A DNA stretch of 64,000 bases from Laetmonice hystrix (Eukaryota): NCBI GenBank assembly GCA_965235115.1, contig OZ249436.1, positions 20,834,001-20,898,000 of the forward strand, in the 5' to 3' direction. Shown one piece after another: positions 4,284 to 58,988 of this stretch. Position 1 is the first letter of the stretch; every line of letters starts with the position of its first letter. The notes under the pieces were generated by a model that was given only the letters and a program-made list of their open reading frames with translations, did no database searches and was not told the DNA's origin. The position numbers were made by a program, and so were the translations under genes.

Positions 4284-5651
4284 AACGTAGGAACTACATG
4301 AGCTCTTTAACACGTACGTGTCTTACGTGGAAAGGAAAATCGGACTGTCTCAATATGGATATCACCGTCCCCCATACAAATGTTCGAAAGAGACTATTGT
4401 ACTGTCTCCTGGTATTGCGGCGTGCGATTCGAGTTTGATACAGCAGCAAACGGGTCAGAGCATTTCGGAAGCTGTGTAGTATGATTGATTCTTGTGATCT
4501 GTGACGAAAAGGCGGGCCGCATCATTAACGTCTGAAGATATTGTAAACTCATTACAATCTACCAGCACTATCCATCTTCTTTTAATGGACTTCTCGGTAC
4601 GGTGAACTGAATCAGCATGATGCCAGGCCTTATGAAATCGCTCCTTAAAAATCCCAGGCTTCCACCAGAAAGGTCCACTTTAACTCATTGTCGATATCGT
4701 CTTGACGCCCATTCTAAGATTTCTGCCACATTTCTTCATTCCAACTTGTACTGCTTGGCCTTTCTCATTCCTCCCCCACAGGAAACACAGACATTTGTTT
4801 CATTTATTTTTATTTTATTTATTTTTAAAAAGATAACAAAGCGGAGTAAGGTAAGAAATCTAATGGTGATTGACAGTGTATAGGCCTAATCCGTTCTCAC
4901 TCCTAAACCTTTTGGCTAATTTCCTCTTCTTTTGTTTCCCCATGGCTTAAACGCACCTCTGGTTGCTCGGTGCTGTTCGTGCCAGGAAAACGGGCTGCTC
5001 AGAGCACCGATTTTTATTAAATATTGAAGAGATTGACAGTCCCCTTGGTTCTTGGCCGTGGGAACGACCACATCAGTCACCTACTAATCGTCTTCACATT
5101 TAACAACTTGCATTAAGCATTCATCAACTGCTCATCCCATCTGTATAATCAGGTGCATTCTAATTAACCCAGCTGACGTTTTGTCCTATTTCTTTTCATC
5201 CAGGAAGCGACCTACAAGGAAAGCTGTTATTGTCAGCTGCTTCCTCAGGGTCTGACGCCTTCGAAATGATCAGAACTCTAGCCTTTGATTATTACAGGCC
5301 GAGAGTAAGTGGCATATTTCAGCCAATCTGAATTCATATCGGCTAAAGGTGAGGGCGCTAGGAGTTGAAATCTAAATAGACATGATTAATCTAGCGTGAA
5401 TTAGAGAAGACTCTACATTGCATTGGTAAAGCCTGTCCGAGAAAAGGTCATTGGAGGATGTTATTCAATCTCCTATCACTTATAATAAAGATTTGCTATG
5501 TAGAATCATACTTTTTTTAAACAGGTAGGTTTGCCACGTACCAAAAGGTGGCATCCAGCATTTTTTCTTTTGATAAGAAACGCCATTTTATTTCTTCTAC
5601 TTTGATCCATCTAGTCTTCATAAGCCTGAACTACTTTAGGATAAATGATTA

Positions 5652-16868: not shown

Positions 16869-17385
16869 ATGACGGTCACACAGACTGCCGAGGCTGGTAA
16901 CGACAGTATAGTCTCTGGTCAACTTCCTTCCTCTGGAACGTTAGACATGAAGCAGTTTACTCATCCTACCGCCTTCAACTCCTCTTATAACTCGTCAGCT
17001 ATCGTCCGTTATGTGGACCACCTATCGCAGGAGTTCGGACCACCGTTTCAATCTAACGACTCGGGTGAGGACTTTTTGGCCTTCCCTGATACAAGCCAGT
17101 TTCCCTATCCGGGCGTCATCGTGTACCCAGCACTATGGGAGGTGGTGGTGAAAGTGGCATTCTATACAATCATTATCGCCCTGGCTCTGGTGGGAAACAT
17201 CCTTGTCGTCTACATTGTTTGGCGTAATAAACGGATGCGAACGACGACCAACTTCTTCATTGTGAACCTTGCTGTGTCCGATCTGATGGTAACCACCTCG
17301 TGTACGTGGGTCCACCTTGTGGATAATCTCACTGAAGGTTGGGTTCTTGGAGCCTTCTTTTGTAAGTTCAACAGCTTTGCTCAAG
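16869..17385 (+). CDS. First coding exon of a class A (rhodopsin-like) neuropeptide-type GPCR: N-terminus, TM1, TM2 and start of TM3
   Basis: Four N-glycosylation sequons (NDS, NSS, NSS, NDS) in the N-terminus. TM1 ...LVGNILVV, ICL1 RNKRMRTTTNFFIV, TM2 NLAVSDL, ECL1 W-VLG-xxx-C. Consensus phase-1 donor CAAG|GTAAGT at 17385/17386. Confidence 0.95.
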
Positions 17386-19196
17386 GTAAGTACACTATTA
17401 CGTGACCCGTGAAGTTTTTAAGTGGGACTTATGGGAAAATGAGTCTTCAAAACCGTGCGAGGTTAGGTGATTAAAGACGATAATGATTTCAAGAAAGACA
17501 CAGGCTCTTGTGATTGCTTTGAAGAGAAAAGACATCAATCTCTAAATGCTTGTATATAAATAGACGGAATGGCCGACGCAGGAGTAATAATACTGAATGC
17601 ATTCTGCCGTAAGGCCGATGGGTTCAATGTCTATTGGTGCGGGGAGGGGCGTGGCCCCTAGACGAAAACAGGTCGTTAGTGTCTTTACCAGCTGTTTCTG
17701 TTTGAACCAATACTCTCCCCTCGTGTGACCCCCTGAGTAGGATACAACAGCCAACGGTAGGCCTATCCTGAAGTATCAGAAGTGACCGAAGGATGGCCAA
17801 TGTGAAAAGTTGTCCCGTATATTTTCGGCAACTTCTATCAGTCATGTCGCTATCATGTCGCTATCAGAGTTTCACGTCCCAGCACACTGTCCAATAGAAG
17901 AAAGGTAAACTCATGATATAAAAATGTAAATTCTTATACTTTTTTTTACCGTTTTTTATAACCACCTCAGGGACTTGTAAACTCTCTCTACTTTCCGCAC
18001 GTTTGGTTGAAAGCGATAAGTAATGGCCTCGACACAATCTATGGCAAAACTGCGACCGATTCCGAAAAGAAACCGTACACAAGGACCGTTATGGAATAAT
18101 GTATTCTCTTAGAGATTACGTGTTATACGTGACAGACTGACTTTCTTTCGCGAATATTTCACAAAGGAAAATACGAATCGTTATTGACTTGGAGTTCATG
18201 ATTCGAATAAGAACCAGAATGCAACGAACAGCGTCTGTTCCATGGTGATTTATTTATGTGGACATCCCCGATAGAATATTTTCAAACCGGCAACGACCTG
18301 CTTGTAGTCTTACATCATGGAGGCGCCCATGCCCTATACATACCGGATATAACGCTGATAAAGCATAATTCTGGTTTCATAACTATTGCGTTGGAGGACT
18401 TCGCGGCTCAGATGGTTTTCATGACGCATGACAGTCAAACAAAAGGAATGCGTAGACCAGAGATGTACACATCTATGCGTAGACTAACAAAAGTCTCAAA
18501 TATACGACTGAAAGACTCTGATTACACATGCCTCATTAGACCGACCCCCTCCTGATCACAGGACCGTCTGATCTGTTTTCAATGGTTAGACGTTTGACAA
18601 TGTTTGTATGGGTATCAAGGGGTTCAGTCACCGGCGAACGCTGCCGGATGGAAAGGCCTAGAGTGACGGTAGGCGTCCCCAACGGAAGCCTGGCGCCGTA
18701 TGCTTATTAAAGGTATCGATAGGGAGTGCACACAAGAGAGTGGTGGCCGTTGTAGCCAGGATAAGTACATCCTTCCTCTGTCAGAGTTCATGTCCCTTGG
18801 CGTCCGGACTATAGAGAAACACAAGGTGGTCGATACAGAGATGTTGTCATTAGTTTAGTTTAAGCAATCAAAAGATTCTTGTCCCGGCAAAGTCAGAACG
18901 ATAAGAATTCCTTCAATGAAGTATTGCGTTGAAAGAACTTTACTGTGTGATGGAAGTGGAGATATTTAAAGCATATCGGGGGGGGGGGGGGGGGGGGGGG
19001 GGGGGCGCGACAGGGCCCTTCAGTCGTGACTGCCTCAAACCACTACGTTGGGTGGATTCGAGTCAGGGTTCAGTAGAGGTTGATTGTTGCCAGGACTCTT
19101 GGATTGATCGAACAAACCTAGGGCCTATGGAGCACCATCTGGGTTATATTTGTTCTAGATCATATGAAGCAAGGGTCGGGTCCTGGTAGTGCCACG

Positions 19197-20395
19197 TTTA
19201 CATATTTGTGGACTGTACATGAACACTGTGAGAAAAGTCTAATTTTACATGTCTGTGGACTGTGCATGAACACTGTGAGACAAGTCTTAAGTTTTACATG
19301 TTTGTAGACTGTACATGAACACTGTGAGACAAGTCTTAAGTTTTACATGTTTGTAGACTGTACATGAACACTGTGAGACAAGTCTTAAGTTTTACATGTT
19401 TGTGGACTGTACATGAACACTGTGAGACAAGTCTTAAGTTTTACATGTTTGTGGACTGTACATGAACACTGTGAGACAAGTCTTAAGTTTTACATGTTTG
19501 TGGACTGTACATGAACACTGTGAGACAAGTGTAAGTTTACATGTTTGTGGACTGTACATGAACACTATGAGACAAGTCTAAGTTTACATGTTTGTGGACT
19601 GTACATGAACACTGTGAGACAAGTCTTAAGTTTTACATGTTTGTAGACTGTACATGAACACTGTGAGACAAGTCTTAAGTTTTACATGTTTGTAGACTGT
19701 ACATGAACACTGTGAGACAAGTCTTAAGTTTTACATGTTTGTGGACTGTACATGAACACTGTGAGACAAGTCTTAAGTTTTACATGTTTGTGGACTGTAC
19801 ATGAACACTGTGAGACAAGTCTTAAGTTTTACATGTTTGTGGACTGTACATGAACACTGTGAGACAAGTGTAAGTTTACATGTTTGTGGACTGTACATGA
19901 ACACTATGAGACAAGTCTAAGTTTACATGTTTGTGGACTGTACATGAACACTGTGAGACAAGTCTAAGTTTACATGTTTGTGGACTGTACATGAACACTG
20001 TGAGACAAGTCAAAGTTTTACATGTTTGTGGACTGTACATGAACACTGTGAGACAAGTCAAAGTTTTACATGTTTGTGGACTGTACATGAACACTGTGAG
20101 ACAAGTCAAAGTTTTACATGTTTGTGGACTGTACATGAACACTGTGAGACAAGTCAAAGTTTTACATGGTTGTGGACTGTACATGAACACTGTGAGACAA
20201 GTCAAAGTTTTACATGTTTGTGGACTGTACATGAACACTGTGAGACAAGTCTAAGTTTTACATGTTTGTGGACTGTACATGAACACTGTGAGACAAGTCA
20301 AAGTTTTACATGGTTGTGGACTGTGCATGAACACTGTGAGACAAGTCAAAGCTTTACATGTTTGTGGACTGTACATGAACACTGTGAGACAAGTC
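19197..20395. repeat. 47-49-bp minisatellite, about 25 copies
   Basis: Unit TTTACATGTTTGTGGACTGTACATGAACACTGTGAGACAAGTC(TT/T/A)AAGT. Confidence 0.95.
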
Positions 20396-20398
20396 TGA

Positions 20399-33799: not shown

Positions 33800-34400
33800 T
33801 ATATGAAGTTTCATGTGACGCCATTTTCCATGACCTTGGGAGGTTTGTAAAGGTCAAACAAGGTCATGCATACTTCTATGGTTCATATCTCCAAAATATA
33901 TAAGATAAGCATTACTATTGAATATGGATAGGAAATCGTGTATAAAGTTTTATTTGGTACTGTTTTCTTTTACCGCAAGTGAAGGTCAAAGCTCATTTAA
34001 TGTCACACATTTTTGTCAATGGCTTATATTTCCCTAACAACTTAAAATATTGTTATATTTCAATATATTTCAAACAAGGTCATGCATTATTTTCAATAGT
34101 TCATATCTCCAAAATTTTGTAAGGTAAGCACATAATTACTATTGAATATGGATAGGAAGTGGTATATGAAGTTTCATTAGGTATTTTCTTTTACCTCAAG
34201 TGAAGGTCAAAGGTCAATCAAGGTCGCACACCTATTAAATGGCTTGTATCTCCATAACAGTTGAAGATATCATAGACGCTATTGAGGATGGATAGGAAAT
34301 CATAGATGAACTTTTATTTTCCGTGAATTTGAGTGACCTCTAAAGGTCAATCAAAATCAAGCATATTTGCAGTGGTATCTGCAAAACAGTTGAGGATAAC
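33800..34400. repeat. Diverged tandem units with AAGGTCAA/TGACC motifs (Helentron-type internal array)
   Basis: Repeated TTACTATTGAATATGGATAGGAA...GTGAAGGTCAAAG...ATGGCTT.TAT.TCC.TAACA blocks. Confidence 0.65.
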
Positions 34401-35205
34401 GCTATCAGTGGGTCACATATCCGGGCCGGATCCAGGATTATTTTCGGGGGGGGGGGGGGCACAGGTGCATGGGTGGATGAATGGATCCATATAGCTACCT
34501 GACATGGGCAAGGGTCACTCAGTATAGGGGGACCAGAACTCTGTTTTTAAAAAATTTCGGGGGCCCCTGTGCCCCCCTAAATCCGCCACTGCATATACTG
34601 TACATAACTGCACAGTTACTAAGATGGAGAGGAAGTAGATACGAAGGTTCATTTAACACTATTTTCTTTGCCCTTTATGGACCTCCAAAGATCAAATAAA
34701 GTCCTGCATCGTTTTTTTCAAGAATCTAAGCTTCACAAGCTTCTTGCTTTTGGATTGGGAGATATGCAGCTAAGAAGTAACGACACTTGTTAACGCTAGA
34801 GCCTTTTCATATACCTTTTCTTGCAATAGGACGTATTCCCATCCCGAAGGCCATCCCGAAGACAGCCAGCAGCGAAGACACAACTAAGTGAACAGTTGGT
34901 TCATTGCATCAAGGATACTGTGCACGGCTGTTCACACAACTATCTTACTGATAAAGGGAAAATCCGAGCTCGGCGCCAAAGAGCCGGGATCATTTATGGA
35001 GGAGAAACGAGGAGTTTGCGTAGGTATGAGATTAGTATAGGTACTCGCACATATATGTATCTAGGACCCATGTCGTGTGCTCGGTATGTATTGTCAAGGA
35101 AATGTAAACAATAGCTGTACTCCCGTTAACCACCATCTTGGTTCTCACCTCTCGCGCGCTCTGGGTCGGAAGTGACGAAGGCGACTTGGGAGACGATTCG
35201 GAGGG

Positions 35206-35213
35206 TATAAATA
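35206..35213 (+). promoter_or_regulatory. TATA box in repeat A1 (also present in A2)
   Basis: GGGTATAAATA near the 3' end of the A repeat, with an ETS-like CGGAAGTG about 40 bp upstream. Confidence 0.55.
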
Positions 35214-37372
35214 CAACCGAGCAGACAGAGTCGAGTTCTCTACCTTTGGAAGCATCGTGGCAATCAGACGGTTTTGTTCCCCACACATCGGGTGAGTTCG
35301 TTCTATGGTTGGGACTTCGTTTCAAGTGTACAGTGGAACGTGGTTTGTCGACTGTTTCGTATATTTGCCTTGTGTTTATGACACCTGTGCAGGTGTTATG
35401 TCTAAAACAGATTCAGTTATTCGTCTTTCGAGGCTGTATTTTAGTCCGGTACCCAGTATTTATGCGTGTCTGAAATACTCTGAGTGTTGCTGAGCACGCG
35501 GTCACTGTCCACGGGGCCGACCTGGCCTTTGTTGTTCGGGCTTGGACAGACTACTTGAGGCTCCTGGTAAACAGTTTGTGTTACGTTGAAGTTATTTCAC
35601 TTTGCCACGCATTGCAGGCGACTGACAACGTCAGCGGTCCTAGGTTGTGTAATTTTGTGTACGTATTTGTCCCAGAATGGTAGTGGGTTACGATAATTTC
35701 AGTTTTGTATTTACCGTGGGTACTCCGTGTTGAGTCGGGTAATAATAGCGTGGGACCAGGAATGGGCTTATACAACGGTAATTTGGAAGCGTATACTTGC
35801 GGGTCGTTCCTTTTCATGTGCGTTTCCTGACCTAGGTGTGACTACTGCTCCCCCTTTGAATTATGTTGGGGTCACTTTTTGTGGTATTGGTGGGCGATAG
35901 CTGCGGCTGGTTGCGGCATACCCGTATGCGCATCCGAATTTTGGTTTGTCCTCCCACGTGGTGTATCATGGTGGGGGGTAGGCTCGGGGAAATGTGAGGT
36001 ACATGGAGTTGATGTTTTTCGCTAGCCCTCACTGTGTGGAGTTGTGTAGAAATATTTTTGTGTCCTCCGGTGGTTGTAGAGGAACGATTCGTGGACTCGA
36101 CCAGTGAACTGCTGTAACTTGATACGCCGGGTGTTCATCAATTTATCTATTCCTGTCTTATATGGGTGTTTACTGCTGCCTCTAATTCTAACAGTTGAGA
36201 CCAAGTTTGCCATGCGACAGGTGTATGGTATGCTTCCCTATAGATTTTGTTAAATAAACGGTGTTTATCGCTTGGCGGAAATGTTTTTGCCGTTTGGAAT
36301 GTTGGTGGGATGTGGATATGCTGCGCGTGTATTCGAGCGGTATGTGGTGAGCTGTTATTTGGCAGAGGTATTAGTTACGGTGGGCAGATTAATATGTCCC
36401 AGAGGTATTGGCATCACCTTTAACCTGATACACTTTGTCTTTGGAGATGGTCGATAAACGTAACGAGTTGAGGGACACTAGGCCTATATTAGTATCGTTG
36501 ATAATTTTCTTTTTGTTTCTAGCCAACGAGTAGCTTATCCCTGTTATATCTAGATTTAGGCAGGTGTCTCTCACTATTCAGTGTTGTTACTTTAGCTACA
36601 GTTGCATGGTAAGGGGCGTGGTTGTGTTACCTGGTTGGGGTCGTGTTCCGTGGGGTCCGTCCTCCCTTGATAGGATTACTTTGGGGTTGACGCTGTGTGG
36701 TCCCTTCGGTTCCGCCTTCCCTTGTTGTTGTTACCTGGTTGGGGGTGGGGCCGTGTTCCGTTGGGTTCCGTCCTCCTTTGATAGGGTTACCTTGGGGTTG
36801 ACGGTGTGTGGTCCCTTCGGTTCCGTCATCCCCGTTATATTACAAGTTGTTTACGGCAGATGTGCCTGGTTTCCGCAGGCTGCCCCATCCTTTGGCGCAT
36901 TGTACTTCTAGTCCCCTTTATGGGTGATCGATGGGTACCCGTGTATATGGATGGGAGAGGGTGTTACCTCCGCTCTGCCTTTGCTAGGGTTTAGGGATGA
37001 TCCTCTATTTTCTTGTTCCAGGAGTTCCGTCCTCCCTTGATACGATTCCTTGGGGTTGACGGTGTGTTCCCTTCGGTTCCGCCATCTCCGTTGTATTAAA
37101 AGTTGTTTACGGCAGATGTGCCTGGTTTCCGCAGGCTGCCACATCCTTTGATGCATTGTACTTCTAGTCCCCATTATGGTGATCGATGGGTACCCGTGTA
37201 TGTGGATGTGAGGGAGTGTCTCCTCCGCTCTGCCTTTGTTGGGGATTGGAGCTTAACCTTTAATTTCTTGTTTTAAAGTTGTTAAGAAGTCATTTTAGGT
37301 CAGTAGGGGGTTTTAGTCAATCAGGTCACTTCTCCTGTATTTTACTGTGTACGCGTTTTATATCTACGTCGC

Positions 37373-37973
37373 CGTCAATTTTCAATGTACCATCATGGTA
37401 ATTTGGTAATATGGGTATCTAGATAAAATTTTAACATCAGTCAGGGTTGTCACCTTAGCTAACTGTTGCCTATTGTTGTTTTTACTGTGTGTTAAGGGCT
37501 ATAATGTAGGATATATTATATATTTATAGTAATTTTGTCTAACTATATAATTTAAATGTTAACTTTGTAAATTATCTGAACGTCAATTTTCAATGTACCA
37601 TTTTGCTAATTTGGTAATATTAGGTATCTTCGATAAAAACGTCAGTCAGGGTTGTCACCTTATTAGCTAATTGTTGCCTATTGTAGTTTTTACTGTGTTG
37701 AGGGCTATAATGTAGGATATATTATATATTTATCGTAATTTCGTCTAACTATATAATTTAAATGTTAACTTTGTAAATTATCTGAACGTCAATTTTCAAT
37801 GTACCATTTTGCTAATTTGGTAATATTAGGTATCTTCGATAAAATTGTTAATGTCAGTTAGGGTAGTCACTTTAGCTAATTGTTGCCAATTGTAGTTTTT
37901 ACTGTGAGGGCTATAATGTAGGATATATTATATATTTATCGTAATTTCGTCTAACTATATAATTAAATGTTAA
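37373..37973. repeat. About 207-bp AT-rich triplication inside the split-repeat element
   Basis: CGTCAATTTTCAATGTACC at 37373, 37581 and 37787. Confidence 0.9.
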
Positions 37974-40467
37974 CTATAAGGTAATATGTAATATTGTATT
38001 ATTGAGTGATTAATTGATTTGTCATAATGTATGAGCGGAATTTATGACATTGCGTTGATTGTATTTGTCATAGGGCAGTAACTGTTACTCACTCGGCCAG
38101 ATGTTTCCTCGGTCTTTTGTTTTCCATTTTTAGGTGAACGACAGGCTGAGCATATGGCTTTGGTGCATAGGACGTGGGACGTATATGCTATATTTACACA
38201 TACATGTACTGATATGAGCAGATGGAAGGCTGAGTATGTGTTTTTGGTGGACGTTGGAGGTTTACTGATGTGGGTAAGGTCAATTCCCCGTGTTTTGAAC
38301 CTGTGATGTTATTCGAAGGGCTGAGTATTGATTTATATTATTCAAGGTTCGGTATGGTTCAGAGGTTGTTCTGGTTTAGAGGTTCCTTTAGCTACCATTT
38401 CTATACATATATGTCATGCCTGTTTCTTGTAGGTTATACTTGCCGCGTGGGCTTAACGTGGTTGGGTTGGGTCTCGGATATCAAAGCCTTTAACTCGTTC
38501 GTTTGATCCTGTGGTTATTTTGTGTATATCTATACGGAGATCAGTTATCTTTTTAAAGTTTTGGGAAACCTCTCGGCCCCAAGAGATCCGATGTTGGATG
38601 TAGGCTATGTTGGACTCCCAAGCGTGAAGCGATTCCACGGTTTTTGACTACGACTTTCATGGTTCCTGCTACGTTTGCGCGTCCTTCACCTCCAGTATTT
38701 GTTATTCCAGTAGTCTCCCCCTTTTTACGTTACCTTATGCTTACGTTACGGTCCGTGTTTCATTAAGTGTCGGGCTCTGTGCCGACTGGTGGGTACTGGT
38801 TTGGTACCGTACAAGGTGGTGGCAAGCGCTCGGGAGCGGCTATAGATAGACGAGGCTTTGAAGGAGGTGGATGAAGTAAGCTTTAATTGGAATAGGTTCC
38901 GTTCTGACCTCCACCCTTAGATGTTAGATGTTACCCAGGAAGTTTGGATGTGTTGTCCGGGGCAGTGACGAGGAAGCTTGGATTTGTCGCCCGATTCAGT
39001 GACGAGGAAGTTTGGATTGTTGCCCGGTTTGGTTATTGTTTATTATTAAATATTTATAGTATGGTCCCAGGTGGTAGAATGGGATACCGTCACATTTTCC
39101 ACCAGTTCTTTCTCGGTCTATTAAAATTTTCCCAGGATAAGTAAAGTATGGTGTATGTCATTTAAGGGGTATGCTTCCTGTTTGGTTCAAGTAGCTGGGC
39201 GTTATAACTTGTTAACCTGACGTTATGCGATAGGATTCAAAGCCTTGATATGCTTGTTGCAGGTACACCAGATGTCCCTAATCGGACGGGATGATGATTG
39301 GCTCCGTGGAAATAGTTTGTTCCGTTATGGACCAGGAGATGATCGGGGCCTCATCTTTCAAGTTGTGTCTGACGGTAATGCTCAGATTTGGCTCCTGGTG
39401 CGGTGTCAGTGGATCGCGTTAGGAGTATTTTCTCCTGCCTTCTTTGGTGGCTCCAGCTTCATCTTCGATTCCGCTTAGTGGCATTGTCTCCACCTAATAA
39501 GGCATACTATACCTATGTCCGTGTATTTTGGACTATGTATTTCTATATAATGTATTATCAGTTATGGTATTATGACTATGGTATTGTTATGTTATGTTAC
39601 ATATATCAGTTACACGTATATGGATTTATCATTTACCATATTATAATGATGTTGAGTCCCCCATTGCATGGGGTGATCGACGGGTTACTACATGTATATG
39701 AATAAAATGTAACCTACAGCAAGCATTCCCGTTCTCCGAGTTTGACTGCATAAATCCGAGCTCGGCGCCAAAGAGCCGGGATCATTTATGGAGGAGAAAC
39801 GAGGAGTTTGCGTAGGTATGAGATTAGTATAGGTACTCGCACATATATGTATCTAGGACCCATGTCGTGTGCTCGGTATGTATTGTCAAGGAAATGTAAA
39901 CAATAGCTGTACTCCCGTTAACCACCATCTTGGTTCTCACCTCTCGCGCGCTCTGGGTCGGAAGTGACGAAGGCGACTTGGGAGACGATTCGGAGGGTAT
40001 AAATACAACCGAGCAGACAGAGTCGAGTTCTCTACCTTTGGAAGCATCGTGGCAATCAGACGGCCCACCTCCGCCCCGACTCCTCCATGTTTCATGTCGA
40101 CTTGGGGGAATATTCTGTCTCAACGCCTTTGTCTAGGTTCACTTATGTTTTTATGTAGGCCTGCTGGGTTTGGCTCGGGGTCAGCATGGCTGCTCGAGTT
40201 CTTTTCTCAGTTTGGTTGGATGGGTGTGTATTTGGGTTCCTGGATGGGCATTGTCTCCACCTAATAAGGCATACTATACCTATATCCGTGTATTTTGGAC
40301 TATGTATTTCTATATAATGTATTATCAGTTATGGTATTATGACTATGGTATTGTTATGTTATGTTACATATATCAGTTACACGTATATGGATTTATCATT
40401 TACCATATTATAATGATGTTGAGTCCCCCATTGCATGGGGTGATCGACGGGTTACTACATGTATATG

Positions 40468-40473
40468 AATAAA
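40468..40473 (+). terminator. Candidate polyadenylation signal in repeat B2 (also at 39701-39706 in B1)
   Basis: AATAAA about 50 bp before the end of the B repeat. Confidence 0.45.
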
Positions 40474-41477
40474 ATGTAACCTACAGCAAGCATTCCCGTT
40501 CTCCGAGTTTGACTGCATAAATGTTGTTTCTTGTCCTCATGCACCATACACCTGAAATCCCGCGCGTCATTTCTTGTTTCTTGCAAAGTCAATCCATATC
40601 AAACTGTGGTCGGCAGTGTAGCTCTGTCGCTGTACGTTGCTTGCGGTTGGAGGGGGGGGGGGGTATCTTATTTGGTTGCATCTACAAAATAAAAGACATT
40701 AAAGCAATCACCGAGTATCTCTCATTTCAATGACTCCAAATTCAAATGTGATGTTAGGTTAGATAAGGGCGTAGACAGAAATGGAGACATCTAGTGAAGT
40801 TCAACACTCCAGTTGCCTATTGTCACTATGAGGCGATCGTCTTACGGCTGGTTGTTGTCAAAGTCGTTGACCTGGAACAGCCAATGAAATTCATTGGTTT
40901 ATCGCCCGATGAATTCCTTTGGCCATCCATGTCAATGCCAGGTGAACAACCAGCCATGAGACGTTCGCCATGAAACTTTTTGGGGGCTACTTTCCCTAAA
41001 CGAGGCGGTAGCCCTTGATTATAACAGAAATGCCCTATATAGTGAACGCCGAATGAAAGCCAAGCTATGTTTGTGAGCAGGCAGCTCAGTGACATTTGAT
41101 ATAGGACATCAACATGGACATATTGGATTGCATGTAACAGATGCAATCGAAACCCCTACTAGCTTCTCAGTTTTTGATCAGTTTCGCCTCTCGAGATTTT
41201 TGATTACACTGTCTTTGATATACCCATATTGTTAATATGAAAGGAGTTTGAAGGAGGCAAAACGATATGAATAACGTACACGGTAAGTTTTTATTAAAAC
41301 ATCAGCATTTATAGCAATATCTGCCTATTCGTATACCGTTATGTTAATAACGGAAATCCAATAAGTTGAGAAACAAGATTACAATCAAGAGAGTCTTAAG
41401 TCTTATAATCGGGAGGGAGATTTCGGGCTAAGATCGCCATCTTATCATGTTTTAAATCATGTTATCAACGACCTGTA

Positions 41478-41650
41478 GGCTGTCTACGCGAAGCCAGACC
41501 TGCCATTCTACTCCGTGTTCACATTGGTTTAAGGCTGCATGTCTACGCGAAGCCAGACCTGCCATTCTACTCCGTGTTCACATTGGTTTAAGGCTGCATG
41601 TCTACGCGAAGCCAGACCTGCCATTCTACTCCGTGTTAACATTGGTTTAA
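41478..41650. repeat. 59-bp tandem repeat, 3 copies
   Basis: GTCTACGCGAAGCC at 41482, 41541 and 41600. Confidence 0.9.
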
Positions 41651-44600
41651 TGCGTTAATTCTAACTGGTTTATTCGAGTTTTGGCCGTATTTGCCCCTGA
41701 GACTAGCATGAATTGTAGTGGCAGCGAAATCCATATCATGTTGAGTGTAGGCGCCTGTCGACAAGAACAGACTGCTAACGGACTATTGACCCTAACTGTC
41801 CACTGACGAGCCCCTCAGTGCCTGTGTTAGGCCCATCTTGCTTGGTCGGGCGGGAAGTCACCCTGCCCTGCGGCCGGCCGTGAATGGTAGGCCCCGGCGG
41901 ACACCGCCCGGCGCGCACCGCCCGGTCGGTAGCCCTGCTCGCCCGCCCACATTCCACATCATGAAGGGGGCAAAGGGCTGGATCGGGAACCTCCGATGAA
42001 ATCGGACACCCCTGATCTCGAACGTGCCCGCAGAGATAGCGCTTCTGATTGCTACTTAAGAACGGGTGTGCCCTTACAACCTTGCCTGGTCCCTAGGGTA
42101 TTAACTAGCCGACAACAAAACCGCTGATTTGCAATTGCTATATGATCGGCAATCTGACAATTACCATTTCTACAGCCCGTAGAGGTTGTCGGTTAAGACA
42201 TGGCATGTTTTCGCCATATCAGGTGAAACGAGAGGTTGATCTCTACAAGGCGCTGCCCTCTTTAGGGATAAAGATGGCCTCCCCTCCCTGCACCCCGCGC
42301 ACATCTAGGCCTAGAGTTGGAACAACCCTTGTTCGCGGACACTTAATATGGTAATCCACTACGAAAAGGCTTCTTTTCGTTGAGGTCGAGGCTGGGAAAA
42401 TGTGAAGGGTATTTTTCTTTGAAGTTGTCTTTGTGAATCGAAAAAACGGTCCGGTTTTTGTGTGCTCTGTGCCATTGCGGACCCGAGGGACGTCTGTCTG
42501 AGAACAAAACTGCAGAAGTCTTCAAATGGGCTCCTTTACGTGTTGCGACCCTCGGCTACATTTTTTCCGCTTCCTAGCAGGCCTAAGCGGTGAAACAATC
42601 TACACTAAAGACCCAGTGACATCTAGTGCAGAGAAAATATAACCGTAGATTGTTGTGTCTGTTTTTACTGATTCCTTATTAAACATGCCCTGAAATCGTG
42701 TTGTAATATTTTGTTGCAGTATACTGTGTTGTAATATACTTATGACTGGAATTAGTCTAGTCCTTTTTAGTGTCCCCCCTTTTTAGTGTGCCCCCCCTTA
42801 GTGAGATGGCAGTGAAATCGACCCCGTGTGCCATATGAAAGCATCTAAAAGTCAATGGTAGTCTTTTAAAGAACTTTAAGTAGGTATTTTAGTATTATTC
42901 CTGGACAGATGGCTTTTAGATTACCCAGAGATTACCGCATGTTTTGTGAGGCAGTCTGGTCGCAGGCCTCTGACAGCGGGGTATGTGATTATCAACTAAA
43001 ATATACATACCTCCTCCTTTTGGGGAGTAACACTGGGAATAGAAAATACTGTAAGAATTGTTCTCTCCCTGTGGGGCACAGCCAAATCTGGCCCACACAG
43101 ATCATGTTCTATCGGAAAATCCACAACACAGCTTATTTATTATTTATGGCTCGTCTGTGGAACTGCTAACTGTTATTGATAAACAGACGGGTTTAGTACC
43201 CGTTTCCCGTTTCTTTTACGTATACATACAAGCGTACATTTTCAAAGACGGCGGAAAAATCACCCTGGAAAACGAATACTTATTGGCATTGGGATTATGA
43301 AAAGCTGCATGTCTCTTATCTGGTACATTAGAGAAGCTTTATGTATTTCGACACGTGTTTCTTTTTTCGCATACACTTGACGAGTTGTATGAAGTATGAG
43401 TATACGGAACGGTCCCATGAATATGCTCTTTGCAAGTCGTCGATCGGCATGAAGAACATCTCTATGATCTAGAGATGGTCAATAAATGTTGGTCATAAGT
43501 GCACGAGTACCTCTGATGGCTGAAAGCCGCCGATAGATTGGTTCTATCTTTGACACCCTAGAGGTATATAGAACCCTAACGTTCCTTGAGATACCCCACG
43601 CGCACGAGTAGCTTCCAAAAACACGTTTATGCATGGGGAATTCTCTTTCAGTACTTGTTATAGGCACGCAGCCTAATTTTAATCCCTCAACAGTGGGCGA
43701 AGGTTTCTCTGATGTTTATGAGGGGCACATCTTAGAGACAACCTAATTAGTGCCTTGCCCACAACGACAAGAGTTTAACGACTAACAACGAAAGGGACGG
43801 GATTGACTAGTAATTGTGAAGCGATGGAATGCAAATGTATCTTTGCACTTTGTACTAAAGGCACAAAGTAATTATGATGTAATATAATACACAGAGCCTG
43901 AGTATCTGACATTGTAGATCATCTCCAGGATAATTTTCTCTTTCTGTGTTGGCTTTCTCGACATATATCGCTGCATTCGCAAGCACTCAGTGAGGAAGGA
44001 TGGGAGGGGGCGAAGGAACCTTCTGATTTCACCCCCTTAAGAGGGTCCATGGTTGTGGCAGATTTCCCCTCATTTTTGCTTCATTGTGAATAGTATCGTT
44101 AAACCATCATGTCCTCCAACACAAGCAAGATTTTGTTGATCCAAATCATAGCGAATTCCTAGCATACAAGTATACCTACCACTTGGAAACAGCGTCTACT
44201 AATATTGTATTTCTATTTTGGTGATAATGTGATGTTGAAGAAGAACTTGGCACTTGTAATTGCGCAATATCGCGTTGGTAAAGTAGAGATATTTTCACGC
44301 TGCCACTCGGCGGGCGAAGAACGATAAATATCTGCCGGAGTGTTGACAGTAAGCCGTGCACGTGACAGTAAGCCACGACACTTGTCGGATGGTAGGCGTT
44401 CTAAATAATGATTGCATACAAGGAGCAATATGTCCGCGGTAAATTGTGTTTATTGTCAAGTGGATGTATTCGAAGACTTAATGCTTAGGCGTATAAATAA
44501 AATAAAGATGGGATATGGGAAAACGCAATGGTGCATGGGGGTTTTTATTACCAAAAAAAGAAGTGTCTGGAGGAGGAACGCAGAAAGTAGCCACTAGGGG

Positions 44601-46099: not shown

Positions 46100-46471
46100 A
46101 CAGGTAATACGAGGCTTACGGACGGAACACACATGCAGCTTTCATGCAAACATTTACGATTCAAACAGGTAATACAAGGCTTACGGACGGAACACACAGC
46201 TTTCATGCAAGCATTCACGATTCAAACAGGTAATACGAGGCTTACGGACGGAACACACAGCTTTCATGCAAGCATTCACGATTCAAACAGGTAATACGAG
46301 GCTTGCGGACGGAACACACATGCAGCTTTCATGCAAACATTTACGATTCAAACAGGTAATACAAGGCTTACGGACGGAACACACAGCTTTCATGCAAGCA
46401 TTCACGATTCAAACAGGTAATACGAGGCTTACGGACGGAACACACAGCTTTCATGCAAGCATTTACGATTC
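46100..46471. repeat. 61/65-bp tandem repeat, 6 copies, with higher-order (65-61-61) structure
   Basis: CAGGTAATAC at 46101, 46166, 46227, 46288, 46353 and 46414. Confidence 0.9.
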
Positions 46472-46650
46472 ACAGAGTTTCTTTTCGGAAACAGATCTCC
46501 TCTTTATTATTGTCTTCATGAAATTTATATTATCCCGAACATCTTCAAAAATTGTTGTTGTTTCAAGGGTGTATAGCCAATAGGGGGGTGGGGACCCGGC
46601 AGTCAAGCGCACATAGACATATCGTCAGAAAATCACTAATTTAACAGCTA

Positions 46651-46945
46651 TAGGGCGCCGAAGTCTCGTGACACAGTTACGGATTTTCTGGATAGGAGGT
46701 ACAAATGGAGCGTCAATGTTGACACACAATTGTTGCGTCACAAATTTCCCCATTGGTTTAAGGACAAGTGCTAGTGTGAGGCCAAAAATTGGTTTGAGAC
46801 AGATTTTTTTTAAATTTTGCAGATAAACAGAGTATGTTGTCCTCTTTCAAAATTCAGCAAAAAAATGATACCTCACCGGCTTAGTTTTTTTGTTAGGAGC
46901 GTTTGAAGTTGGTATTTTCTTCATGTTAATGAATACAGTTTACAA

Positions 46946-46978
<33 letters not shown>

Positions 46979-47010
46979 TTTTTGTCAGAACGGTGTTATG
47001 ACAAATAGAA

Positions 47011-47056
<46 letters not shown>

Positions 47057-47186
47057 TTTTGACTTTGAACATTTTCACTGGTGTAAGTGAGCAAAAAGTG
47101 AAAAAGTTCAAAATCAAACTTTTTTTTTATTTTATTTTTTTTTTTAACACTTCTATAACTTGGAGACCGTTATGACAAATAGAAAT

Positions 47187-47220
<34 letters not shown>

Positions 47221-47698
47221 CTAAACAGTAATTAGTAATTAACATGACGAACATATCAATTTCAAACGCTCTTAACAAAAAAAGTAACCTGGTGAGGTAT
47301 CATTTTTTTGCTGAATTTTGAAAGAGGACAACATACTCTGTTTATCTGCAAAATTTAAAAAAAATCTGTCTCAAACCAATTTTTGGCCTCACACTAGCAC
47401 TTGTCCTTAACATAGGATGAAGAGACATCGTTCCAAAGATCGGCCTAGTCTTGAAGATTTTTGTGTTGTTTTGTATAAAAGTTATATATTCAAGCATAAA
47501 ACAGGTTGATACAAATATCTGGGAAGGTTTCATTACAAAGGGCAGGATAATTAAAGAGAAATCACGAGTTGAAGTTGGCAGTCGCCGTCCCCTATGGCCA
47601 GCGCAATGCTAAACAAGCGTGAGCGATAATGACGTGTCAACAAAATCGACTTTTATCGCGTTGTAACGCAACATCTCGTGACCTACTTCGGCTCCCTA
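46651..47698. mobile_element. Non-autonomous DNA transposon with TAGGG...CCCTA termini in TA context, hosting a nested MITE
   Basis: TATAGGGCGCCGAAGT ... ACTTCGGCTCCCTATA. Confidence 0.7.
46762..47406. mobile_element. Kolobok-type foldback MITE
   Basis: TTAA-GGACAAGTG ... CACTTGTCC-TTAA. More than 110 bp of perfect TIR, extending imperfectly over most of the element. Confidence 0.9.
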
Positions 47699-47943: not shown

Positions 47944-48358
47944 TAAGATTACCATGCCCTTCTGGTATAAAGATTACCATGCCCGTCTGGTATAAAGATT
48001 ACCATGCCCTTCTGGTATAAAGATTACCATGACCTTCTGGTATAAAGATTACCATGTCCCGGTATAAAGATTGCCACACCCTTCTGGTATAAAGATTGCC
48101 ATGCCCGTCTGGTATAAAGATTACCATGCCCGTCTGGTATAAAGATTACCATGACCTTCTGGTATAAAGATTACCATGTCCTTCTGGTATAAAGATTACC
48201 ATGACCTTCTGGTATAAAGATTACCATGTCCTGGTATAAAGATTACCATGCCCTTCTGGTATAAAGATTACCATGTCCTTCTGGTATAAAGATTACCATG
48301 ACCTTCTGGTATAAAGATTACCATGTCCTGGTATAAAGATTACCATGCCCTTCTGGTA
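47944..48358. repeat. 25-bp minisatellite, about 17 copies
   Basis: Unit TAAAGATTACCATGCCCTTCTGGTA, with shorter variants. Confidence 0.95.
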
Positions 48359-48467
48359 TCGGATTAAAAAGATGATAACACGATTGGCTGCCGGGTTTCT
48401 CTATTTCTTTCTCCTGTGATTACGTGCCCACACAGACTGGTGTTGGCGTACGTTTCTTCTCGTACCT

Positions 48468-49573
48468 CCCCCTAGCGACCAGGGTAAGAATCATCCTCAG
48501 CGTCATACCCCTGGCGACCAGGGTAAAAATCATCCTCAGCGTCATACCCCCTGGCGACCAGGGTAAGAATCATCCTCAGCGTCATACCCCTGGCGACCAG
48601 GGTAAGAATCATCCTCAGCGTCATACCCCTGGCGACCAGGGTAAGAATCATCCTCAGCGTCATACCCCCTGGCGACCAGGGTAAGAATCATCCTCAGCGT
48701 CATACGCCCCTGGCGACCAGGGTAAGAATCATCCTCAGCGTCATACCCCTGGCGACCAGGGTAAGAATCATCCTCAGCGTCATACCCCTGGCGACCAGGG
48801 TAAGAATCATTCTCAGCGTCATACCCCTGGCGACCAGGGCAAGAATCCTCCTCAGCGTCATACCCCTGGCGACCAGAGTAAGAATCATCCTCAGCGTCAT
48901 ACCCCTGGCGACCAGGGTAAGAATCCTCCTCAGCGTCATACCCCTGGCGACCAGAGTAAGAATCATCCTCAGCGTCATACCCCTGGCGACCAGGGTAAGA
49001 ATCCTCCTCAGCGTCATGCCCCCTGGCGACCAGGGTAAGAATCCTCCTCAGCGTCATACCCCTGGCGACCATGGGTAAGAATCATCCTCAGCGTCATATC
49101 CCCCCCCCTGGCGACCAGGTGTAAGAATAATCCTCAGCGTCATACCCCTGGCGACCAGGGTAAGAATCATCCTCAGCGTCATGCCCCCTGGCGACCAGGG
49201 TAAGAATCATCCTCAGCGTCATACCCCCTGGCGACCATGGGTAAGAATCATCCTCAGCTTCATACCCCTGGCGACCAGGGTAAGAATAATCCTCAGCGTC
49301 ATACCCCTGGCGACCAGGGTAAGAATCATCCTCAGCGTCATACGCCCCTGGCGACCAGGGTAAGAATCATCCTCAGCGTCATACCCCTGGCGACCAGGGT
49401 AAGAATCATTCTCAGCGTCATACCCCTGGCGACCAGGGTAAGAATCCTCCTCAGCGTCATACCCCTGGCGACCAGAGTAAGAATCATCCTCAGCGTCATA
49501 CCCCTGGCGACCAGGGTAAGAATCATCCTCAGCGTCATACCCCTGGCGACCAGGGTAAGAATCATCCTCAGCT
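48468..49573. repeat. 39-bp minisatellite, about 28 copies, derived from a SINE head
   Basis: Unit CCCCTGGCGACCAGGGTAAGAATCATCCTCAGCGTCATA. Confidence 0.95.
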
Positions 49574-49895
49574 TCACCACTGCCCTTTATTAAGAGGCCG
49601 TGAATGGGGCGATGACTCGAGGGTTGAGGAAGTGGTTCAGTTCCGGATTAGCCTGGCACAGGTGGATTTAGATTCTTATAGTACCCTCCGCAAGGTGTTG
49701 ACATATCCAGCTGTGTTATTCGGCTGGGCATATAAAAATGTGGTAATTTATCGAAAAGAATAGGGGCTTCGATGGTTTTTTTCTCTCTCTGATCGTATCC
49801 TTACGCCACTCTGGGACTTTGAAGATTTTGTTCTCGCCCTGAATAAAATTGAAATATTTTCGACACGGCCTAAAACCACATGTCACCCACTCACT
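49574..49895 (+). mobile_element. Diverged body and tail of the SINE family, continuing directly from the 39-bp array
   Basis: TAAGAGGCC..GAATGGGGCGA, GGAAGTGGT, TCCAGCTGTGT...TGGGCATATAAAA, ATCGAAAAGAATAGGGG, CGCCCTGAATA...TGAAATATTTTCGACACGGCCTAAAAC...CACTCACT. Confidence 0.75.
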
Positions 49896-53258: not shown

Positions 53259-54468
53259 AATCAGGCAACCACCGAGAGGGTTAGGCGCACGGACAGTAGA
53301 GATAGAAATCAGCAACCACAGACAGGGATAGACGCACGGACTGTAGAGTGAGAAATCAGGCAACCACAGAGAGGGATAGACGCACGGACTGTAGAGTGAG
53401 AAATCAGGCAACCACAGAGAGGGATAGACGCACGGACTGTAGAGATAGAAATCAGGCAACCACAGAGAGGGATAGACGCACGGACTGTAGAGTGAGAAAT
53501 CAGGCAACCACAGAGAGGGATAGACGCACGGACTTTAGAGTGAGAAATCAGGCAACCACAGAGAGGGATAGACGCACGGACTGTAGAGATAGAAATCGGG
53601 CAACCACAGAGAGGGATAGACGCACGGACTGTAGAGTGAGAAATCAGGCAACCACAGAGAGGGATAGACGCACGGACTGTAGAGATAGAAATCAGGCAAC
53701 CACAGAGAGGGATAGACGCACGGACTGTAGAGATAGAAATCAGGCAACCACAGAGAGGGATAGACGCACGGACTGTAGAGTGAGAAATCAGGCAACCACA
53801 GAGAGGGATAGACGCACGGACTGTAGAGTGAGAAATCAGGCAACCACAGAGAGGGATAGACGCACGGACTGTAGAGATAGAAATGTAGAGATAGAAATCA
53901 GGCAACCACAGAGAGGGATAGACGCACGGACTGTAGAGATAGAAATCAGGCAACCACAGAGAGGGATAGACGCACGGACTGTAGAGATAGAAATCAGGCA
54001 ACCACAGAGAGGGATAGACGCACGGACAGTAGAGATAGAAATCAGGCAACCACAGAGAGGGATAGACGCACGGACTGTAGAGATAGAAATCAGGCAACTA
54101 CAGAGAGGGATAGACGCACGGACTGTAGAGATAGAAATCATGCAACCACAGAGAGGGATAGACGCACGGACTGTAGAGATAGAAATCAGGCAACCACAGA
54201 GAGGGATAGACGCACGGACTGTAGAGATAGAAATCAGGCAACCACAGAGAGGGATAGACGCACGGACTGTAGAGATAGAAATCAGGCAACCACAGAGAGG
54301 GATAGACGCACGGACTGTAGAGATAGAAATCAGGCAACCACAGAGAGGGATAGACGCACGGACTGTAGAGAGAGAAATCAGGCAACTACAGAGAGGGATA
54401 GACGCACGAACTGTAGAGATAGAAATGTAGAGATAGAAATCAGGCAACTACAGAGAGGGATAGACGCA
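53259..54468. repeat. 48-bp minisatellite, about 25 copies
   Basis: Unit AATCAGGCAACCACAGAGAGGGATAGACGCACGGACTGTAGAG(TG/AT)AGA. Confidence 0.95.
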
Positions 54469-55322
54469 CCGCCTGAAGTTAATGATTTTTGTCTTGTTTT
54501 GTAAATACTACCCACCCTCGGATACGCTTTGATTATAGACACCGGATTGCTTGTAATTGACCTCACCTCCGGATGTAAAAACCAGCTGATATTGTTCACT
54601 CTGTGTCTGATGTTTTTCCGAGTCTGACTTCAATGCCAGAACCGTGACTCTTGCAGCAAACAGGAAACGACAGAGACGGCCGAAAGCGCACATCATTTTC
54701 AATATTCTGGGCTCTAATTGCGGAACTCCTACCTGAGGTTTCCCTTCTTTAGATTTGAATATTGGAGCTGTTACCACCTTTAGCTTTAGAACCTGATTTA
54801 TCGGGTTGGTTCGCCCCCCCAACCCCCCCCCCCCCCCCGGGGTAAGTATGGGTGTACATACATGTAGCAGTGTTGACCACACCAGACCCGTGTTGGTTGA
54901 ATTGATCTCACGACAGACACGCTCATTTCATAAGGACTTTTAACTCTCAGATTGTTTTGAATGATATCTTTTCCCTTTTCGAAACTCACCCGGACAGATC
55001 CGACACAGTGAACTTTAGACATGGTGTCTTTATACAATCTCCTCCAAGTCATCCCTGACAGTAAATTGGTATTCTTAGTATCACTGGAAACACAACGGAC
55101 AGGGTACTGCAGGATAATGCAGTTGTCTTTTTTTGGGGGGGGGGTGGGGGGGGGTGGGGTGGGGGTGGGGGGTAAACTTAAGAGCAATATGCAAGATGCA
55201 AATGCATGTACCAACTACACCATAAAATATGACAAGATATATTGTTTGAATTATTGACGTCGCGTGCTGTCTGCCTAGTTTCCTGTCACCATGGTGTTTG
55301 CTGGAATATTATTCAGTTTTTG

Positions 55323-56560: not shown

Positions 56561-58988
56561 TGCTCCATTTGACGTCTGCCTTGAGCAGAACGGTCCAGTT
56601 TATTAGCGACATTCACATGTAGGCCTATAGCTCAAGCTCTCCACGCCTTCATTTCGTAATTCCGATGTCACTTGGTCGCTCTTAGCTATACATTCGTCTT
56701 GGGGATCGTGGCCTTTCTTTGAATAATGTTGATACTGACATTTGAGACACTCTTTCTTCCATGGATTGGTACCGCGTACAGTAGTTCTAGGTCTTGGGCA
56801 GATTCTAGGTAATCTATTAGCTGAGAAGAGTGTGTACTGGATTCTATAGGAGGAACGGGGACAAACATCCTTACTCGATCCATATCATCACGTATTTATA
56901 AACTCTTGGTGAATTGTCTTCCATGGATTACTTTGCCGGTTATTACTTCCAAGGCCGTAGATTGTATTGAGGTAGCCGAGGCAGCTGTATTGTATTGCAA
57001 ATATTTTCTGGGGGAGGCCTCCCAGACCCCCCCCCCCCGCATTAACGGCTATACGTGTAGGCCTAGTGTTGAAGTATAGCTTCTAGACGGTCTTCCTATA
57101 ACGAAGCTGTCGAATGCTTTTTAAGATCCAGGAATTTTGACAGAGAAGAATCGTTATCGATAATGCAGACTGCTGCAATAAGGTCTACACATGATGTATT
57201 GTTTTTATATACTAAAATCTAACGTTTTTTTCTATCTTGCTGACTATAGACAAAGACCGATGAAGATGTTCTACAGGTGTGTCAAACCAGACAACGACCA
57301 TTAAAGATATTTTCCATAAAACGATTCACCACTCCAGACCTTTTTCCCATAGGTGATGGTCAATGGCGCCCCAAGAGGCGTTATGAAACATTTGTTATTT
57401 GGTACCAGAATCCATCTGCACCATAATTATTCTTTCATACATTCTAGCATAGACAGCTTATTATTGAAGTAACGCTGCCGACTTCGAGCTCTTGTATAGT
57501 GGATAAATAGAGGGAAATATCAAAAGATAATTAAAGGAGCGAATTCTGCCGAAGGCATCTCGATGCCCATGTCCATACACATTGCACCTTTTCTGCCGAG
57601 ACTATACTGTCCAGATGCTTGGAAATATGAGCGTCTATGCCTGCCCTTGAAATATCAGTGAAGAGGCCTCAGGATAGGGTTACATGAACCGGCACGTCGC
57701 ACCTTGGCCATTGTTAATCGAGGCACAGCTGATATTCTTGCCTGTAGTCGTACACTGTCCCCTGGTGGGGCCCATCCGAGTGTATCTGCAGGGTCGATCT
57801 GTCAGCTTGATTGGCACGGGGAGCCAGTTTGAAGAGGTACACCGTGATTTATACAGGGGTAATGTCGAGGGTGAGTGACGCCCCTCGCCCCGCCTCGGGA
57901 GACAACGACCAACATGCAGTTATCGCAGGGTCTGAAGACAAGCTTTGATGGAATCTATCTGGCTATACACATGAAGAGATTATGGTTGATTTATAACAAG
58001 ATGATAGCTGGGGTTACACCTCTTTTTTTAACTGTGATTGATGCTCGATATTTTTTATATCATGTCTCAGTATGCAAAGGTCTGCATGGTACAGTCTAGC
58101 TACGTTTATCAAACGGTATCTTGGCATTCCTCTTGTCTTCTCCATCATTGTCGCAAAGATAGAATTGAACATGCGCATTGCTTTTTGAAAAGTAATGTAG
58201 GCCACATGTAAGTCGGACTTATCTGTGCTTTACATGCATGAGATTAACATGCTAGACATGGTGTAGCTTAATTACTCCAAATGTAACGAGTATTGACTAA
58301 TTCGTTTCCTTTAAGTGTTTGTACGTGACTGCCGGCAAAGGAACCATTCATTTGAATGTGATTTGAATCCGGATAGACTATGTATGCTTGATTAGCGCGA
58401 CTGTATCATGTTTGCTGAAAGTGTACTATTTGTCCAATCCTATATGCTTTATAAGATCGCCGAATGCAATCACAATCGACCCCTATAACCTCGTAATAAA
58501 TGATCGGTGACGTCACCACAGGAAGCTTGAGTTATGGTCGACAGGGAGCATGTGGTGGATCGAGTGGCGGGATTGGAAGGCGCATGTTGACCTAGAAGAT
58601 GTTGACCGCTCGCGTGACCCCGACACCCCCTGTTTCCGGTGGGGGTGGGGGGCTTTGGAAACAATGGGAAATCCTCCCTTTCAGGTACGACCGTAGGAGC
58701 TGTGTTGCCTGACCATCCCTGCCTCCAGTCCAGCCTCCCTCTGGGGAGGACGACTCTCCTTTAAGGCATAGCTTCACCAAATGGGCCGACAAAACCGCTA
58801 AGTGCTCCAATGCATCTACCCGAGGAACGGAATACACGCCCGAGTAGGATAGCGTGGGAATACCTTCCAATATGTGTTAAACGGATGGCTTGTGTGGCCG
58901 AATAATGAGTCCTCCATGGTATAATCATAGACGTAGATTCAGTGTAGGTCTATGGGTATAATGAATGTTTCTTATAATGCCCTCTGGA

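Follow-up and report, generated by a model that had tools for sequence, protein, structure and literature searches.

A large gene-less split-repeat retroelement of Laetmonice hystrix, very probably an Ngaro-type derivative moved in trans by coding relatives

The window analysed here, a stretch of 64,000 nucleotides from Laetmonice hystrix (assembly GCA_965235115.1, contig OZ249436.1, positions 20,834,001 to 20,898,000), belongs to a contig of 74 Mb (genome size 627 Mb) and holds, at 34963-40521, a 5.56-kb element that very probably is a large non-autonomous derivative of Ngaro-type tyrosine recombinase (YR) retrotransposons. Coordinates without a contig are window positions, and all features of the element lie on the forward strand. 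Its parts follow one another in the order A1-internal-B1|A2-spacer-B2: an A1 repeat of 309 bp (34963..35271), an internal region of 4208 bp (35272..39479), a B1 repeat of 275 bp (39480..39754) that abuts the A2 repeat (39755..40063), a spacer of 183 bp (40064..40246) and a B2 repeat (40247..40521). Split direct repeats in this Ngaro arrangement are found both here and in the coding element described below. The A copies are identical (312/312 bases between 34960-35271 and 39752-40063), and the B copies differ at one base (275/276 identical between 39480-39755 and 40247-40522; G 39517, A 40284). Each A carries a TATA box, that of A1 being a putative promoter (35206..35213; second copy at 39998-40005), and each B contains an AATAAA (39701-39706, in a hairpin loop of B1, and 40468-40473 in B2) and ends in AAA. 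The original prediction, made from the letters of the window, had described this order, the identity of the A copies, the one-base difference between the B copies, the three junction sequences and the two kinds of signal, and in all of these our comparison agrees with it. No inverted pair of at least 20 nt was found within the element, the longest self-complement being 12 nt, so that it has neither the inverted repeats nor the internal complementary region (ICR) that DIRS1-like elements possess.

The internal region, T/G-rich on the sense strand, is non-coding. The longest stop-to-stop frame in the element has 126 amino acids (aa), none of the 32 frames of at least 60 aa reached the Pfam cut-off (four had matches at E 0.01-0.08), and six-frame translations of families 1-5 (family 1 being that of this element) scored like shuffled sequences against profiles built from relatives, with best E values of 0.29 for YR, 0.88 for reverse transcriptase (RT)/RNase H and 0.62 for ORF1, where positive controls scored below 1e-30. 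Rfam gave a single match far under its cut-off (E 0.23) and no ribozyme. All that we found of the genes of an Ngaro element is a decayed trace of a YR gene's final ~110 nt (39339..39444), undetectable as protein. Without open reading frames (ORFs) for gag, RT/RNase H or YR, the element is an Ngaro derivative and not a coding member, and the large non-autonomous element that had been proposed is confirmed in this respect. The region also contains short imperfect tandem repeats (three units of 55-56 bp) with a ~255-bp duplication (36636..37272), grown into an 83-bp array in family 2, and an AT-rich 206-bp tandem repeat in 2.9 copies (37373..37975). The sense strand of the internal regions is 36-37% T and 20% A, compared with 28-29% T in coding relatives, a T-richness that may reflect mutation bias freed from coding constraint. 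Just within the region, a putative splice-donor-like motif (35291..35297) is kept in families 1, 2 and 3, in the last although the rest of its internal region cannot be aligned.

The repeats are far from confined to this locus. A genome search with A, in which the best 40 of 245 candidates were scored, returned matches that are all 98-100% identical, and the 20 loci fetched, covering 33 of those matches, comprise 13 full A-internal-B-A-spacer-B copies, six lone A-spacer-B units of 769 bp and one interrupted copy. LTR-type (long terminal repeat) or inverted ends were looked for in the other copies and are present in none. Fourteen full copies of family 1 differ by 0.13-1.32% (median 0.81%). The start of A was found 190 times in the genome and the B|A junction, here at 39742..39772 and probably the template of both element ends, 86 times (56 exact, 2 with one mismatch and 28 with two; control 0), the same core being present in the coding element. 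An internal region precedes 29 of the 30 junctions on contigs C1-C8, the exception being a nested insertion; no permuted copy was seen among 26 A-A pairs, all 26 of which are spaced by 4.7-10.6 kb; and lone units account for 35 of the 91 A starts, with one A-internal-B form in the same count. Lone A-spacer-B units arise most simply by recombination between A1 and A2.

Several diverged families share this organization. Family 2, a sister subfamily of which three copies were read, is non-coding, and its internal region is 74-90% similar to that of family 1. Family 3 has 24 junction matches, and its one 6.1-kb copy that was read, also non-coding, has an internal region that no longer aligns to family 1, with A and B each 100% identical within the copy. 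Family 4 is represented by one truncated, non-coding copy. Family 1 is young and multi-copy. The possibly undescribed family suggested in the original prediction needs revision in that there are several related families, of a kind for which the algal element TOC1 provides a precedent. Longer copies with an A-A spacing of 6.1-7.4 kb were tried as possible helpers and rejected (3/3 non-coding, with expanded tandem arrays or insertions). Of three loci with related junctions, two were further non-coding families and the other a fragment. Family-2 copies L031 (2276-3613), L032 and L033 (minus strand) carry private insertions and a diverged internal tandem array of ~146 bp, which indicates that internal length and content are loosely constrained. 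Family-3 junctions lie 5.2 kb apart on one strand at G000:C1:23653209/23658426 and at C3:4964442/4969644, probably as head-to-tail tandem copies.

The ends of the copies define the crossover core. In 23 right ends AAA is present in 23/23 at each position, followed by T in 11, A in 10 and G in 2; in 24 left ends (the target-side core at 34960..34962 of this locus) A is found in 23, 23 and 24, and the following T is invariant (24/24). Since that T is invariant on the left and present in 11/23 on the right, the core is AAA and the T belongs to A, which places the start of A at T 34963 and gives B its AAA end. The AAAT core of the original prediction is therefore one base too long, its four-base match at this locus being partly due to chance. 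In the right half of the target (40522..40531), TT is preferred at +6/+7 after the core (40527-40528), occurring in 17/23 right flanks compared with 7% of the 230 AAA sites that served as background (p about 1e-15); among eight right ends of other families, inspected by eye, four have TT and seven have T at +7. A 3-bp core common to junction and target, with no variable target duplication, is what is found in YR retrotransposons (order DIRS). An empty allele is available for comparison, from one of four sequencing runs (X1-X4) that represent one sample: a public contig of run X1 joins window position 34959 to 40519 with no intervening letters, leaving one copy of the core. Reduction of the empty site to a single core had been expected, and that core is AAA. 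Contigs of runs X2 and X3 end at 34963, where the filled and empty alleles diverge, and the simplest reading is that the locus is a heterozygous, very recent insertion. Elsewhere, copy L005 lies in a tandem array in which the adjoining unit shows the empty site. A family-2 copy (L064, L065; G000:C2:40893613 to about 40901010), which ends after a single B, has inserted precisely where a family-3-type copy ends on its right side; families thus share targets, which suggests a common recombinase specificity.

Coding relatives were reached through a conserved cis motif that spans the boundary between the internal region and B1 (39436..39504). Its 19-letter pattern occurs 154 times in the genome (control 1). 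No YR match was found within 3 kb upstream of 125 of these markers, and a further 11 of 11 motif loci, each read over 1.4 kb, gave families 3b, 3c, 5 and 5b, with YR in 0/11 over the 1 kb before the motif and none before B1. Only a shorter 12-mer of the motif (225 matches, control 35) led to the coding relatives: within the first 100 of those 225 matches it adjoins the end of a YR match at seven places, two of which were fetched (L066 and L067). Both show a YR C-terminus, a stop codon, the motif directly after it and a B repeat that shares the hairpin motifs and the terminal AAA, and L066 continues with the junction, an A2 with TATA box, the spacer motifs and B2. That the motif begins after the stop codon led us to reject it as a coding YR tail. 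The L066 element (C5:27731062-27737362, 6.3 kb; A1 99% identical to A2, B1 identical to B2) has a stop-free RT/RNase H frame of 607 aa, with a 48% match (E 3e-162) to the protein of a related element (RVT_1 by Pfam), and a stop-free YR frame of 325 aa (50%, E 1e-81). There is no room for a methyltransferase in L066, where 3 nt separate the end of the RT/RNase H match (residues 91-614 of a 616-residue query) from the YR match; this exclusion is indirect, being based on an RT query that has no Dam match, where a DIRS1-like control does match Dam. From its ORF order (RT/RNase H, then YR, with B1 after the YR stop) and the lack of room for a methyltransferase, the coding partner appears to be of Ngaro type. 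The claim of an Ngaro/PAT-type element is accordingly narrowed: its Ngaro side agrees with the ends and the partner, and its PAT side falls with the methyltransferase. A search for an autonomous partner had been proposed, and candidates with RT/RNase H, YR and the same end signals are present. A second, broken copy of the L066 element, 90% alike, lies on C12, and on C3 and C4 there are full-length stop-free YR frames with the motif whose RT frames are shorter or interrupted; coding relatives are rarer in the genome than gene-less copies. In other animals, the frames of related elements are three in number and overlap, with lengths of about 370-420, 610-630 and 340 aa, and no relatives were found in viral contigs or in a first metagenome scan.

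The B, A and spacer of L066 align to family 1 far above shuffled sequences (0/300 each; for the spacer, a score of 77.5 against 32 +/- 6), and the YR remnant at 39339-39444 aligns as DNA to the YR 3' end of L067 (local score 71.5, shuffled 26.9 +/- 4.1, 0/300), more weakly to that of L066 (score 42, reached by 8/300 shuffles). The aligned ends and the decayed YR 3' end argue that family 1 descends from the L066/L067 clade. The genome also harbours many other YR retroelement families (L021-L030, L022, L038-L052), among them a DIRS1-like element in which a Dam-like domain is present (L026) and at least five further families with split repeats (L022, L038, L040, L041, L046, L052) whose B repeats start GGC or GGG-like. 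Seven YR matches form a tandem array at G000:C5:36673264-36711727 with a spacing of 6.2-6.7 kb, and the YR tail of L047 is unlike the Ngaro type. At G000:C1:56917485 and five similar loci, YR lies within single open frames of 1100-1450 aa with inverted-repeat ends (L049); these are probably DIRS1-like elements in which pol has been fused to YR.

Variation among copies bears on how they replicate. In family 1, variants that distinguish one copy from another are shared by the two repeats within a copy in 15 cells for A and 18 for B, compared with three private A1/A2 and four private B1/B2 differences, and the paired variants run along the whole length of the repeats. Over all 17 copies the counts are 67 paired and 4 private cells for A and 98 and 12 for B, figures that include subfamily differences and alignment-end columns. 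Repeats that are alike within a copy fit ends rebuilt from one template and not DNA cut-and-paste. The sequences kept across families 1-4 and L066 are the motif after YR, the start of B, the two hairpin-forming motifs of B with AATAAA in the loop, the junction, the TATA box (with one change in L066) and the two spacer motifs, the C-rich one at the 5' end of the spacer and a second one. The predicted fold, a branched stem-loop, joins the post-YR motif to the start of B1 by pairing and is therefore possible only at B1 (fold z -2.3 against +0.4 for the matching stretch at B2; -1.6 to -3.9 over five sequences). In the stem-loop alignment 85% of cells are paired and 4/23 pairs show double changes; shuffles equalled the covariation in 4-8/500 on three measures and in 83 and 356/500 on two, and pairing slid by +1 scores similarly. 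The stem-loop is thus a hypothesis with modest covariation behind it, the structure having been drawn from the same sequences. An RNA model of the motif found no convincing match in 80 YR loci from metagenome contigs of other animals (best E 0.026), and the motif is clade-specific as far as tested.

We consider it highly probable that the element is a large non-autonomous Ngaro-type derivative mobilized in trans by low-copy coding relatives of the same genome. Its RNA would start after the TATA box of A1 and end after the AATAAA of B2 and would hence lack both outer ends; Gag and RT of the helper would package and copy it; strand transfers on the internal B1|A2 junction would rebuild both ends; the cDNA would close at a new B|A junction; and the helper YR would recombine the AAA of the element with an AAA site in the genome, so that both ends would carry AAA. 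The stem-loop, possible only at B1, may be what distinguishes the two junctions, although this is speculative. The likeness of repeats within copies supports an RNA intermediate indirectly. The end signals common to gene-less and coding elements are those probably needed for movement.

Several observations weigh against this reading. The RNA, cDNA and circle steps are transferred from the published DIRS/Ngaro model, and the DIRS-1 cDNA is reported, in the consulted part of PMC7192593, to be mostly linear and single-stranded, with no circle junction amplified, so that a circular intermediate belongs to the model. The filled junction of this locus is spanned by none of the contig pieces shown. 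Profiles detect no RT or ORF1 remnant in the internal region, which may have arisen by decay in place or by replacement. The alignment of the YR remnant to L067 is significant in families 1, 2 and 3b and not in 3, 3c, 4 and 5. L066 was read mainly at its ends, and ~2.3 kb, in which any gag-like ORF1 would lie, separate A1 from the RT frame. Over the B end and A its nearest family is family 5 (73-75%); family 1 stands further off, and L066 so need not be the present helper of family 1. The right targets of the two coding elements have T at +7 and none at +6, that is, a full TT in 0/2.

The last two points would equally suit an element of the same kind whose helper lies outside the L066/L067 clade or is missing from the haploid assembly, the shared motifs recording ancestry only. 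This is unlikely, in our view. The genome does contain many other YR frames (94 matches in one search, 55 in another), and closer partners may exist beyond the first 100 of the 225 12-mer matches; against this, comparison of 16 YR 3' ends and 10 further YR loci with the ends of the element gave no match (0/26, one of them, L051, having been cut on the wrong side), and the motifs are kept where internal regions no longer align, which points to continued use by proteins of the L066/L067 clade.

A Crypton-like DNA element, excised and reinserted by a YR with no RNA step and carrying its split repeats as relics, is quite improbable. Cryptons likewise have a short shared core and no classical duplication (PMC13465315, in the part consulted), and some YR frames of the genome seem to be RT-less (L044, L047, L048). 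DNA excision, however, would not equalize A1 with A2 and B1 with B2 in each copy while the copies differ from one another; the element shares conserved promoter, poly(A) and post-YR motifs with RT-coding elements; and a YR-only DNA element would have no long split repeats, which are present here.

LTR elements offer another model. The large non-autonomous LTR derivatives of plants known as large retrotransposon derivatives (LARDs) have a conserved non-coding internal region and are moved in trans, and a LARD-like element, or nested solo LTRs mimicking split repeats, would be large and non-coding, with two repeats, TATA and AATAAA and lone units (35/91 A starts on C1-C8). We regard this as very improbable indeed. 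LARDs differ in their LTRs, integrase and variable target duplications. Here the A-internal-B-A-spacer-B order is constant in 13/13 full copies, two full LTRs with TG..CA ends are not what is seen, and the shared bases are always AAA and not a variable duplication of 4-6 bp, which already contradicts an LTR origin, as do end signals that are those of YR-coding elements. Troyka, an LTR group with CG ends (PMC12440569, consulted in part), was considered as well and does not fit. A local duplication or assembly artefact is barely credible: perfect repeats can come from misassembly, and the unspanned filled junction would agree with one, but the same structure recurs, each time with variants of its own, at dozens of sites that are not linked, and the X2 and X3 contigs end exactly where filled and empty alleles separate.

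With a non-autonomous Ngaro-type derivative as the preferred interpretation, the best reading among known systems is that the element may be an animal counterpart of TOC1 of Chlamydomonas reinhardtii. Judging by the title of their 1991 paper, Day and Rochaix reportedly described TOC1 as having an unusual split repeat arrangement, with an internal tandem array. Its layout is likewise A-B-A-B with a short spacer, and it is not known to carry ORFs. The element described here, with split repeats, several kb of length, no ORF, internal tandem repeats and many copies, corresponds to this type in structure and copy number. In the sources, consulted in part, TOC1 is also larger than 5.6 kb (PMC3623635) and a non-autonomous YR retroelement (PMC5613634, PMC9940879), with TOC3 of the PAT group as its partner; it differs in having a PAT-type, methyltransferase-bearing helper in an alga, whereas here there is an Ngaro-type partner, an animal host and several diverged families. 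Ngaro elements (A1-ORFs-B1A2-B2, no methyltransferase) share the repeat layout and the order of RT/RNase H, YR and then B1 seen in the partner. Cafeteria Ngaros likewise show lone AB units, but their type 2b copies lose ORF1 only (PMC8547959, in part), unlike an element without any ORFs. SIRE of Trypanosoma cruzi is the A2-to-B2 part of VIPER (PMC6681497, in part), comparable to the 769-bp lone units; it is short, whereas the full 5.56-kb unit here keeps the internal junction. DIRS1-like elements also recombine a 3-bp junction with an identical genomic trinucleotide (PMC3266345, PMC7192593, in part) and differ in their inverted repeats, ICR and methyltransferase, which are not found here. Our class assignment follows definitions in the consulted parts of PMC9210276, PMC4157794, PMC3266345 and PMC7192593, and comparison extended to parts of PMC3783388 and bioRxiv 10.64898/2026.02.25.703748.

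Large gene-less Ngaro derivatives in animals were not found in the open literature searched, although Repbase, subscription journals and supplements (e.g., the family tables of PMC12477816 and PMC9210276) may hold them, and in the portions of that literature covered the term 'non-autonomous DIRS' was applied only to TOC1. A large non-autonomous YR element is already a known concept from TOC1 and to that extent less surprising. What appears to be new, as far as sequence comparison goes, is that RT/RNase H and YR elements carry the same end signals directly after the YR stop and that the gene-less element keeps a decayed YR 3' end. For split-repeat YR retrotransposons, the priming of reverse transcription, the rebuilding of the ends and the choice of junction are still a model, the experiments in the consulted part of PMC7192593 concerning DIRS-1, whose ends are different. 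In gene-less families no coding constraint acts on the cis signals, and the motifs they share with coding relatives form a short, testable list; one genome offers an insertion that is young and polymorphic, a target preference that has been defined and a candidate for an intact helper. Repeat annotation based on ORFs misses such elements although they are commoner here than coding ones.

A more far-reaching proposal can be put forward only tentatively, and as a whole we think it rather doubtful. The gene-less families might form an undescribed class of large Ngaro parasites, widespread in marine invertebrates and more numerous than their helpers, with their motifs mapping the steps of split-repeat retrotransposition; the B1-only stem-loop might be a packaging or a priming/termination signal that explains the use of the outer junction (seen as the 29/30 canonical junctions and the lack of permuted copies on C1-C8); and lone units might in part be 767-bp mini-circles that have integrated, and not products of deletion. 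If true, a branched stem-loop starting from the YR stop codon would explain why integration always uses the outer junction.

The surroundings of the element contain a gene and many other repeats. At 16827-17402 on the forward strand lies the first coding exon of a rhodopsin-type G protein-coupled receptor (Pfam 7tm_1, E 7e-18); later exons of it did not turn up in the window in a simple motif scan, so that a long intron of the gene may contain the element. Its flanks, at 34157-34670 and 40699-41095, are other high-copy short repeats, one of them with 25-nt inverted arms (40832-40856 / 40945-40969), and a GC-rich insert of ~176 bp (34423-34598) is missing from other copies of its host repeat. 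Minisatellite arrays with units of about 40-100 bp occupy 3155-4308, 19197-20396, 41481-41657, 46100-46472, 47945-49576, 53259-54478 and 58988-61227, and a long inverted repeat is located at 46758-47410.

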